Of a stretch of DNA of 64,000 nt, positions 47,046 through 48,310 are shown piece by piece; positions within the stretch are counted from its first letter, which is position 1, and every line of letters starts with the position of its first letter. The notes beneath the pieces were generated by a model, which worked only from the letters and a program-made list of their open reading frames with translations, ran no database searches and had not been told where the DNA came from. The DNA comes from a virus, in the IMG/VR virus record IMGVR_UViG_3300045988_181536, positions 1-64,000 of that record; one strand, written 5' to 3'. The translations under genes and the position numbers were made by a program.

Positions 47046-47987
47046 ATGCCTAAAGACACTTCATATTTTGAAACAGCAGGAACCCGTCCGGTATGGGATC
47101 CTGATTTTTCGTCTTCGGAAACAGCCAGATACAATGATTATGATCAAGACAATGTAAAGGTTATTAACGAAGATCTAAATGACGATATGGAACTTTTATC
47201 CGAGATGGATAAAAATCCGGATTCGTTCATAAACGATAATCAAAAATTAACGTATGAAGAGGCTTATAGGAACTATCGTCAAAATCCAAATGTATCTAAT
47301 TTAAATAAAGTTATACATAGTTTGGGAGATACGATAAATTATTCTTTGGCTTCAAACAACGCCAGCGGGGATCCTTTGTTGGAGGCTAAGGCTAAACTAA
47401 TTACTGCAAAAGCAGTTAAGGAATTTGACCCTGGGTATAAAGTCAGTTTGCCCACCTATGTCTCTTCACAACTTCGCAAGATGACCCGCCTTGCCAGAGA
47501 TTTAAGAAATCCAATTAAGATTCCGGAAAGATATATCTATGAATCGCAAAATCTGCAACAAGCGGAAAAGGACTTTATTGAAGAGCATGGAAGAGAACCG
47601 GATTTAACGGAACTTTCTGATGAGACCGGAATGTCTATTAAAAAAATTTTAGATATTCGCAAGAAATCTTTAAAACAAGTAAGTGAGCAGCAGGGTTTTA
47701 CCAATGTTAATAATGAGGATGACTCAGCGTCATCCATTGACGAAACAGCTGTTGCAGGACCGGATTTCTTGGAAGAGGCGCAAACTTACGTATATTATGG
47801 ATTGGATCATCGCCAAAAAAAGGTTTTTGAACACTTAACGGGTTTTGGCGGTGCAAAGGTTTTATCTCCTGCACAAATTTCCCAGAAATATAAGGTATCA
47901 TTGCCTACGATATCCCGCATGGCAAAAAGATTTGCAAAAGAAATAAGTGAAAACTACGACGCATTAGAAAGTGTATACGCCTCATGA
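47046..47987 (+). CDS. sigma-70 family RNA polymerase sigma factor (regions 2 and 4) with acidic N-terminal extension
   Basis: AVKEFDPGYKVSLPTYVSSQLRKMTR matches region 2.2-2.3 ([24 protein letters not shown]). DLRNPIKIPER matches region 2.4 (ARTIRIPVHM). LDHRQKKVFEHLTGFGGAKVLSPAQISQKYKVSLPTISRMAKRFAKEI matches the region 4 HTH pattern. Confidence 0.75.
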   Translation: MPKDTSYFETAGTRPVWDPDFSSSETARYNDYDQDNVKVINEDLNDDMELLSEMDKNPDSFINDNQKLTYEEAYRNYRQNPNVSNLNKVIHSLGDTINYSLASNNASGDPLLEAKAKLITAKAVKEFDPGYKVSLPTYVSSQLRKMTRLARDLRNPIKIPERYIYESQNLQQAEKDFIEEHGREPDLTELSDETGMSIKKILDIRKKSLKQVSEQQGFTNVNNEDDSASSIDETAVAGPDFLEEAQTYVYYGLDHRQKKVFEHLTGFGGAKVLSPAQISQKYKVSLPTISRMAKRFAKEISENYDALESVYAS

Positions 47988-48310
47988 AAATAGACGATTT
48001 TGCAAAAGCAACAATTGAAAACGTTTTAGATTTTATACAGGGAAAACCTTATAAATCTTTAAGCGAAATTGTTTCCGGAGATAATGACATTACATCTGCA
48101 GTAATGTTATTGCGAGCGGAGGCTGAAGGACTGGAAACATCTAAAGATCCTATTGAATATCAATTTGCTTTTGCATTAAAGCGAGATACCGTAAGCAGAT
48201 ATGCTTCTCGCAAACTTTTGTATAAAGCCGGATTGGACAAGAAGTTATATAATGCCAATTTAATGCAGGCTACATCGTTAATCAATAAAAAAATGAATGG
48301 AACTAATTAA
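47984..48310 (+). CDS. hypothetical protein coupled (ATGA overlap) to the sigma factor gene
   Basis: 108 aa, helical. Possible co-factor or regulator of the sigma factor, inferred from position only. Confidence 0.4.
   Translation: MKIDDFAKATIENVLDFIQGKPYKSLSEIVSGDNDITSAVMLLRAEAEGLETSKDPIEYQFAFALKRDTVSRYASRKLLYKAGLDKKLYNANLMQATSLINKKMNGTN

Follow-up and report, generated by a model that had tools for sequence, protein, structure and literature searches.

The subject of this work is a gene encoding a sigma-70-family factor in a virus genome, the IMG/VR virus record IMGVR_UViG_3300045988_181536, of which we analyzed positions 1 to 64,000 (hereafter the window, 64,000 nucleotides (nt) long). Exact-protein matches located the window on ~174-kilobase (kb) contigs, several of which are labelled human gut metagenome. 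The gene encodes 313 amino acids (aa), and an AlphaFold model together with sequence alignments divides its product as follows.

47046-47987, + strand: sigma-70-family factor, 313 aa
47046-47240 (aa 1-65), + strand: acidic, disordered N-terminal extension
47247-47510 (aa 68-155), + strand: sigma2-like helices
47526-47669 (aa 161-208), + strand: sigma3
47676-47756 (aa 211-237), + strand: acidic, disordered linker
47769-47981 (aa 242-312), + strand: sigma4 helix-turn-helix (HTH)

Because the window protein on its own scores below threshold against Pfam Sigma70_r3 (E-value (E) 4.9e-5, 23.8 bits, cut-off 25.3), its assignment as a sigma factor rests on a family profile and on structure. The same single-sequence Pfam scan also gave weak matches to generic HTH families; a PHROG match to an HNH endonuclease, likewise from a single-sequence scan, was judged spurious. 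A search of 5.8 billion proteins returned 32 clusters of homologues, all of them metagenomic, 28-99% identical and found on contigs of up to 185 kb, and an alignment of 25 family members from these clusters yielded profile A1. Compared with the PDB, this profile matches Mycobacterium tuberculosis SigB (E 5.4e-14) and Escherichia coli RpoD (E 3.7e-13) as well as solved SigA, RpoS and SigF, with E from 5e-14 to 1e-5 across the sigma factors; the lone non-sigma entry among the matches listed is interleukin-1 alpha (E 0.007). The alignments open in region 2, which reads kAikkFDp..LpTYvssqLrk in the sigma family, and continue from the FDP...TY motif through region 3 to the HTH of region 4.2, with the Staphylococcus aureus sigma chain 8x6g_H aligned to profile positions 26-269. 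All 25 family members match Pfam Sigma70_r3 (best E 7.7e-9) and 12 of them match Sigma70_r4 (best E 1.6e-6); Sigma70_r2 is absent from the 16 families listed for these members at E up to 0.01. The sigma2 domain (regions 2.1-2.4, with the core-binding and -10 recognition helices) is recognized through the PDB profile, NCBIfam and Foldseek alignments, sigma3 through Sigma70_r3, and the sigma4 HTH through Sigma70_r4, the PDB alignments and the helices of the AlphaFold model.

That model has a mean predicted local distance difference test (pLDDT) score of 73, with ordered parts mostly at 82-94, and places helices at residues 70-154, 161-208 and 242-312 (the last of these, sigma4, at pLDDT >90), with residues 1-65 and 211-237 disordered. 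When it was compared with the PDB using Foldseek, the top 50 matches were all sigma factors, each at probability 1.00, and the alignments to solved sigmas covered 224-288 columns. The profile and fold matches bear out the earlier note on this DNA, which had read the gene as a sigma-70-family factor with region 2 and region 4 HTH signatures; the profile comparison that it had proposed led to solved sigmas and not to a non-sigma HTH family.

The product of the ORF at 47046-47987 is thus a member, though a divergent one, of the sigma-70 family, in which sigma2, sigma3 and sigma4 are arranged in a group-3-like manner. It shares this compact layout with the bacterial group-3 sigmas (SigB/SigF/SigG, FliA/WhiG), which also provide its best NCBIfam matches, and differs from them in being phage-encoded, in lying within an operon of virion genes and in having an extra acidic N-terminus. 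The nearest NCBIfam model is SigBFG (E 3.4e-11, 43.3 bits against a curated cut-off of 234); Sigma_B aligns from aa 76, and the remaining sigma matches fall further below their own cut-offs. Because the scores lie far below every curated NCBIfam cut-off, the protein falls outside every bacterial sigma equivalog, SigB/F/G, FliA/WhiG, RpoD and RpoS among them. Of the -10-element melting residues of regions 2.3-2.4, the conserved T and Y are kept, T137 being invariant across the family; in the SigB alignment, read with E. coli residue numbering, S-Q stand at the positions aligned to the W-W dyad. Several group-3 sigmas also lack this dyad. The N-terminal extension is acidic, as the earlier note had described it, but it spans ~65 aa rather than roughly 100, with 17 D/E versus 5 K/R and pLDDT <50. 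It is confined to the gut-phage clade: short-form family members of 222-243 aa begin near residue 68 of the window sigma and lack the extension. The guanine-plus-cytosine fraction at the locus, 0.35, is the same as that of the neighbouring genes.

The sigma gene is embedded in a run of late genes, the nearest of which are given here with the gap that precedes it.

46751-46987, + strand: basic ORF of 78 aa directly upstream of sigma; a small ORF is likewise placed in relatives
46988-47045, + strand: 58-nt gap before sigma, with three TTGCTT repeats and without a terminator or Shine-Dalgarno sequence
47984-48310, + strand: ORF of 108 aa, predicted all-helical (5 helices), overlapping the sigma stop codon (ATGA)
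48316-48879, + strand: gp25-like baseplate wedge candidate of 187 aa (family profile A9)
48883-50859, + strand: conserved structural protein of 658 aa, the positional equivalent of gp13 of Salmonella phage Arash

All non-nested ORFs of at least 120 aa in the window lie on the + strand. Weak but consistent matches mark a capsid-like gene at 25218, a sheath-like gene at 28574 and a VgrG/DUF2345-like gene at 30723; the ORF at 45988 has a faint baseplate-wedge match, and profile A9 matches T4 gp25 in the PDB at E 0.014, a second gp25-like chain at 0.096 and Afp9 at 0.9. The sheath-like, VgrG/DUF2345-like and weakly gp25-matching genes support the placement of the sigma gene in a tail-gene block that had been proposed from the sequence alone. 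The position of the 658-aa protein after the gp25-like gene suggests that it is gp6/J-like; because its family has no match among PDB sequences, this name follows from position. Counterparts of the 78-aa ORF, again by position, are Arash gp9, Vibrio D181_0010 and a 69-aa ORF in relative L002. No recognizable promoter was found in the 58-nt gap upstream of sigma, and its TTGCTT repeats are kept only in near-identical strains. Hairpin and T-run terminators at 9699-9825, 16784-16850, 23650-23915, 26250-26334, 30584-30722, 55522-55547 and 60373-60426 split the single-strand late region into several units. No terminator was found from ~41 kb to the strong hairpin at 55522, and the unit containing sigma extends to 55547.

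A tblastn search with the window sigma returned just three short unannotated fecal contigs, and a megablast of 20 kb against GenBank phages returned no match. The beta' gene described below led to cultured relatives: tblastn with this polymerase half found Vibrio phages D181, D148, D69 (187 kb), Salmonella phage Arash (181 kb) and others. In Arash, gp10 (OQ632216 11892-12596) bears the annotation 'RNA polymerase sigma factor'; it scores E 2.8e-26 against profile A1 and aligns with NCBIfam FliA/WhiG from aa 6 (E 6.7e-12). Vibrio phages D181, D148 and D69 each carry an unannotated sigma ortholog, which in D181 is the ORF at 10995-11684 (annotated hypothetical; E 2.4e-22 to profile A1). In Arash and D181 the gene order is a large structural protein, a small ORF, sigma, a second small ORF whose start precedes the end of sigma by an overlap of 11-13 nt, a ~165-aa protein in the gp25-like position and a ~530-aa protein. 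These phages share with the window not only the sigma family and this order but also the beta' C-terminal half and homologous capsid and sheath genes. They differ in that direct similarity to the window sigma is weak (phmmer E 3e-7), the orthologs are short forms (229-234 aa) without the acidic extension, the small ORF downstream has no detectable similarity to the 108-aa ORF, the hosts are Proteobacteria, and beta/beta' of Arash lack the inteins seen in the gut phage.

The same arrangement recurs in uncultivated genomes. IMG/VR yielded 18 and then 26 more sigma loci, mostly on 146-212-kb contigs, and among 48 sigma-bearing loci in total (four of which are contigs sampled twice) 36 carry a gp25-like gene in the first 1.5 kb after sigma and 43 carry a large structural gene in the first 2.5 kb. 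The sigma search and the beta' search, neither of which is complete, have nine IMG/VR contigs in common, and these nine include 8 of the 13 beta' contigs that exceed 100 kb; Arash and the three Vibrio phages likewise carry both genes. For this analysis we define an operational family, the Arash gp10-like sigmas of RNA polymerase-encoding myoviruses, whose members combine sequence homology, a place just ahead of three genes (a small ORF, the gp25-like gene and the large structural gene) and a bacterial-type beta/beta' in the same genome; the window sigma has all of these, and presence of the protein in virions is a further feature, known from Arash. Judged from sequence, it belongs to a lineage of ~145-210-kb myoviruses with their own bacterial-type multisubunit RNA polymerase (RNAP). 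Arash also encodes a second sigma, gp196 (L006 657-1694), a protein of 345 aa with a more bacterial look and RpoD/RpoS-type matches at E 1e-19 to 1e-22; a second sigma of this kind was not found in the ~100 kb of the gut-phage genome examined.

The polymerase of the gut phage is itself divided among several genes, one of which lies in the window.

10447-12723, + strand: RNAP beta' C-terminal half, 758 aa, the presumed partner enzyme of sigma

The beta' fragment reported in the earlier note is real: the ORF matches bacterial beta' at E 2e-25, and its start coincides with that of cyanobacterial RpoC2. Located 7-10 kb upstream of the window is a gene of 1126 aa that matches Rpb2_6 (E 1.6e-47), Rpb1_2 (E 1.4e-10) and Rpb1_1, aligns to beta ~911-1113 and beta' ~168-461, and contains the catalytic ADFDGD motif. 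Because this gene carries beta and beta' segments and the window ORF carries the C-terminal half of beta', the genome encodes a beta(C)-beta'(N) fusion together with a separate beta' C-terminal half. RNAP pieces and sigma therefore occur on the same phage, as had been suspected.

Both parts of this polymerase are associated with intein-like sequences. A mini-intein lies in the beta' C-terminal half (window 11416-11829, aa 324-461 of the ORF) between the EPAIQGG and SKHEAGG motifs, reading ...GGL/CLHYTTEIML...GLISHN/SSKHEAGG with slashes at its borders; it matches Pfam Intein_splicing at E 3.7e-5 and is absent from the Arash and Vibrio D181 beta' orthologs. The beta-beta'N fusion (L009, which is ena:ERZ501519 NODE_1, 174 kb; positions 1-3090) ends just past its catalytic motif, where ...GADFDGD is followed by CQWGHVFLLTKS and the stop. 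The missing beta' segment (TMNVHVPALPEAQ...) forms the last 84 aa of a 322-aa ORF 5.3 kb downstream (L009 8455-9423), where it is preceded by ...VVLSN/T, and the first 238 aa of that ORF match positions 21-153 of the 155 in Pfam Intein_splicing (E 0.034). The arrangement resembles an intein split in an atypical way, into an N-fragment of 12 aa and a C-fragment of 238 aa, so that beta' would be completed by protein trans-splicing. Around the RNAP genes (L009 3122-7005; L091 826-1935, 7050-7808) are mobile and accessory genes: a Mom-like/DUF7487 ORF, a DUF559 endonuclease-like ORF, a DNA-ligase adenylation fragment and three TnpB (IS605 OrfB / Cas12f-like) genes, with ThyX and two metallophosphatases nearby.

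Published particle data for the cultured relative bear on where such a sigma acts. In purified Arash particles, gp10 was detected at 100% coverage with 24 unique peptides and 467 spectra, and gp11, the small ORF after sigma, and gp13 were detected as well (PMC10585845). To compare proteins of different size, we divided the number of unique peptides (PMC10585845) by protein length from the GenBank record.

Arash gp10 (sigma): 24 / 234 aa, 0.10 unique peptides per residue
Arash gp206 (beta): 128 / 1525 aa, 0.084 unique peptides per residue
Arash gp216 (beta'): 40 / 606 aa, 0.066 unique peptides per residue
Arash gp204 (portal): 32 / 579 aa, 0.055 unique peptides per residue
Arash gp226 (capsid): 30 / 307 aa, 0.098 unique peptides per residue
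Arash gp27 (ribonucleotide reductase alpha, likely carry-over): 11 / 764 aa, 0.014 unique peptides per residue

The peptide density of gp10 is like that of beta, beta' and the capsid protein and ~7 times that of ribonucleotide reductase. The second Arash sigma, gp196, has no mention in the main text of PMC10585845. A comparable case is Yersinia phage YerA41, for which RNAP subunits and a late-expressed sigma (g019) have been reported to be particle-associated (PMC7354516). YerA41 resembles the lineage studied here in that it has genes for beta, beta'N and beta'C and in that its sigma is expressed late, encoded in a structural block and detected in particles (PMC7354516). It differs in that its RNAP genes are clustered and expressed early and its sigma is not orthologous.

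T4 gp55, SPO1 gp28 and SPO1 gp33/34 are phage sigmas that redirect host RNAP, and T4 gp55 is a minimal protein with sigma2 only, where the window sigma extends from sigma2 to sigma4. Like these proteins and the sigmas of RNAP-less jumbo phages, the window protein would be a phage sigma that controls phage gene classes; unlike phages of that kind, which lack a multisubunit RNAP of their own, this lineage encodes one, its beta/beta' pieces retaining an intact catalytic motif. At the other extreme, phiKZ gp68 and AR9 gp226 are described in a review as the fifth, promoter-specificity subunits of the non-virion RNAPs of jumbo phages, gp68 being structurally sigma-like and both being reported to have no sequence similarity to sigma. 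They possibly do the same job, that of a specificity subunit for a phage multisubunit RNAP, and differ in belonging to non-virion enzymes, whereas the window protein is a plain sigma-70 member with a virion-associated ortholog. Neither the PDB sequence matches listed nor the 50 best fold matches of the window sigma include a gp68 or gp226 chain. PaBG was considered and rejected: the paper on it describes genes for sigma factors, whereas RNAP core subunits are not reported there.

Two reviews (Iyer et al. 2021 and a 2026 review) describe RNAP-encoding phages as lacking sigma homologs and phage sigmas as serving the host polymerase, in agreement with the general rule from which the earlier note had started. 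The combination of sigma and RNAP in one phage, which that note had singled out, does run contrary to both reviews but is not unprecedented, given the Arash gp10 ortholog in virions and YerA41; studies in which a sigma is paired with a phage multisubunit RNAP did not come up in our literature searches. The gene itself is an ordinary annotation, a divergent phage sigma with an already annotated ortholog. Because that ortholog is both annotated and reported in virions, the window sigma is known in kind, though uncharacterised.

Based on these data, we propose that the product of the window gene is made late and serves as the sigma subunit of the polymerase that the phage encodes, and that it is probably packaged for early transcription; we give this proposal a probability of about one half. 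The sigma gene would be transcribed late, within the baseplate operon, and its product would bind the phage beta/beta' core, rather than host core, as the promoter-specificity subunit. Sigma would then be packaged with the phage polymerase into the virion, and in the next cell the injected holoenzyme would start transcription of early phage genes. Such a model is the most economical because it accounts for the fixed place of the gene in the late module, its co-inheritance with beta/beta' and the levels of the ortholog in Arash virions. On the same grounds (beta/beta' in the same genome, the fixed late module and the Arash virion data), the sigma-dependent phage RNAP that the earlier note had listed as one option is the option now favoured.

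Several points weigh against this proposal. The phage is known from its sequence, and for all of these sigmas core binding is something that we infer. A sigma-70-family protein could in principle also bind host core, because bacteria share conserved surfaces for sigma docking. No promoter motif can be linked to the window sigma, and the N-terminal half of beta was not found in the ~100 kb of genome examined. Arash particles also held many enzymes, including ribonucleotide reductase, ligases and kinases, and the authors allow for carry-over of abundant enzymes into the preparation (PMC10585845). Finally, no YerA41 ORF matches the sigma-family profiles (E >1), and because its sigma is not detectably related to the window family, YerA41 serves as an analogy only.

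Among the rival explanations, the sigma may take over host transcription, redirecting host core RNAP to middle or late promoters while the phage polymerase works without sigma. This is the textbook role of a phage sigma and the one that reviews assign to it, and the full bacterial-type sigma2-sigma3-sigma4 layout is retained in the window protein. We regard this explanation as possible but unlikely: the gene sits within the very late structural operon that it would need to switch on, the Arash ortholog is abundant in particles in which the other Arash sigma, gp196, is not reported, and the family occurs with phage beta' across Salmonella, Vibrio and gut phages, for the last of which a Bacteroidota host is suggested. 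It is also conceivable that sigma serves the phage polymerase inside the cell only, for example at late genes, and that its detection in particles reflects carry-over. Late expression is what a late-promoter factor acting by positive feedback would show, and the Arash and YerA41 particle preparations are rich in non-structural enzymes; this explanation nevertheless seems improbable, as the peptide density of Arash gp10 is on par with those of the capsid, the portal and the RNAP subunits, with ribonucleotide reductase at about one-seventh of it, and a polymerase delivered by injection would, for its part, require a specificity factor. That the protein is no sigma at all, being some other HTH DNA-binding protein or a decayed remnant, would accord with the single-sequence scores below curated cut-offs and the weak generic HTH matches, but this reading is effectively refuted by the family profile aligned over regions 2-4 to many solved sigmas, by the 50 top fold matches and by the conservation of the family, whose members in dozens of phage genomes are 25-99% identical and share invariant positions in the core.

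Extending our proposal of a packaged polymerase sigma, we tentatively suggest, as an idea with somewhat less than even chances, that a widespread lineage, with abundant 174-kb human-gut phages among its members, packages a complete bacterial-type holoenzyme consisting of an intein-assisted beta/beta' core and a sigma-70 factor. This sigma-dependent virion RNAP would be an intermediate between cellular RNAP and the phiKZ-like polymerases, which are sigma-less by sequence, and the small ORF coupled to sigma could be a lineage-specific accessory of the holoenzyme or of its packaging. Sigma and RNAP are inherited together, with sigma fixed in the virion module, in Arash, three Vibrio phages and dozens of IMG/VR genomes. 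If our hypothesis of a sigma-dependent virion holoenzyme is correct, Arash, which is cultured, would offer a tractable model for how virion RNAPs find early promoters, the evolution of jumbo-phage RNAPs would be linked to bacterial holoenzymes, and common human-gut phages would possess a host-independent transcription system.

The 108-aa ORF that follows sigma begins with an ATG at 47984, within the overlap sequence ...GCC TCA TGA. The earlier note had suggested that it could be an anti-sigma factor or a co-activator; of that claim the ATGA overlap is confirmed, while the function finds no match in Pfam, PHROG, PDB sequences or folds. The family is small and phage-only, with the motif FALKRDxxSRYASR...ALDKKLY: an exhaustive HMMER search of 1.8 billion representatives gave 16 small proteins, and a word-indexed search gave close relatives only. 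The AlphaFold model is a five-helix bundle (pLDDT 75) whose best Foldseek match in the PDB has E 1.3, with no anti-sigma among the matches listed. The family profile, A3, matches at 8 of the 48 sigma loci, all in the gut-phage clade. Across the 48 loci, the space from sigma to the gp25-like gene is usually right for a single ORF of 100-140 aa, and the small ORFs in the post-sigma slot of other clades form separate sequence clusters, including the Arash gp11 type, with hhalign probabilities to the 108-aa family below 4%. The slot is conserved; the sequence in it is not.

An anti-sigma factor or co-activator translationally coupled to sigma is, in our judgment, quite doubtful. The overlap is real, a small ORF follows sigma in most relatives, mostly overlapping or abutting it, and Arash gp11 in the same slot was also detected in particles. 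Against this, the protein has no family or fold similarity to known anti-sigmas, slot proteins of different clades lack detectable similarity to one another, and the slot adjoins the gp25-like baseplate gene, so that its occupant may be a small baseplate or assembly protein. Moreover, because start/stop overlaps are common in this operon, with others at 50859 and 53858, the ATGA coupling is not specific to this gene pair. The 108-aa protein is more likely a fast-evolving small helical protein with an accessory role in the virion or baseplate than an anti-sigma; a sigma- or RNAP-related accessory role may also be considered.

The earlier note had further proposed a genome-wide search for a -35/-10 pair shared between intergenic regions. 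No such pair could be tied to the window sigma: a scan for sigma-70 consensus promoters from 40 to 56 kb gave 62 sites against 66 expected. The GGTATATA element, with 4 sites in the window against 2.7 expected, is not enriched and is not attributable to the window sigma. Just downstream of the late block, after the tail-fibre genes, we observed a ~50-nt element, tGAAAAA-N12-ATTTGnGGTATATAT...TTAGAAAG, with copies at window 63532-63541, at L012 13106, 14020, 14380 and 17043, and at L087 6192, 6909, 7262 and 9599. Its three to four copies are always intergenic and on the + strand; three lie ~90-104 nt before small ORFs, and the fourth and weakest lies ~400 nt before the next + strand ORF. There is no intergenic copy inside the 63-kb late block and no match in Rfam. 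We consider this element a candidate phage promoter or leader that is not assignable to the window sigma.

A Shine-Dalgarno core is present in 10 of 49 window genes, compared with 5.2 expected at random positions, and the leaders are A/T-rich and G-poor. Such very weak Shine-Dalgarno use, together with leaders of this composition, suggests a Bacteroidota-type host. No tRNA genes were found inside the window, and two lie just downstream of the late block (L087 8133-8203 and 8224-8308, corresponding to region L012 15291-15964). Within the window, two further ORFs have distinctive compositions: that at 3527-4630 encodes an acetyltransferase domain with a Pro/Met/Gly-rich tail, and that at 22120-23649, upstream of the capsid gene, encodes a highly acidic, Ala/Glu-rich protein of 509 aa with a scaffold-like look.

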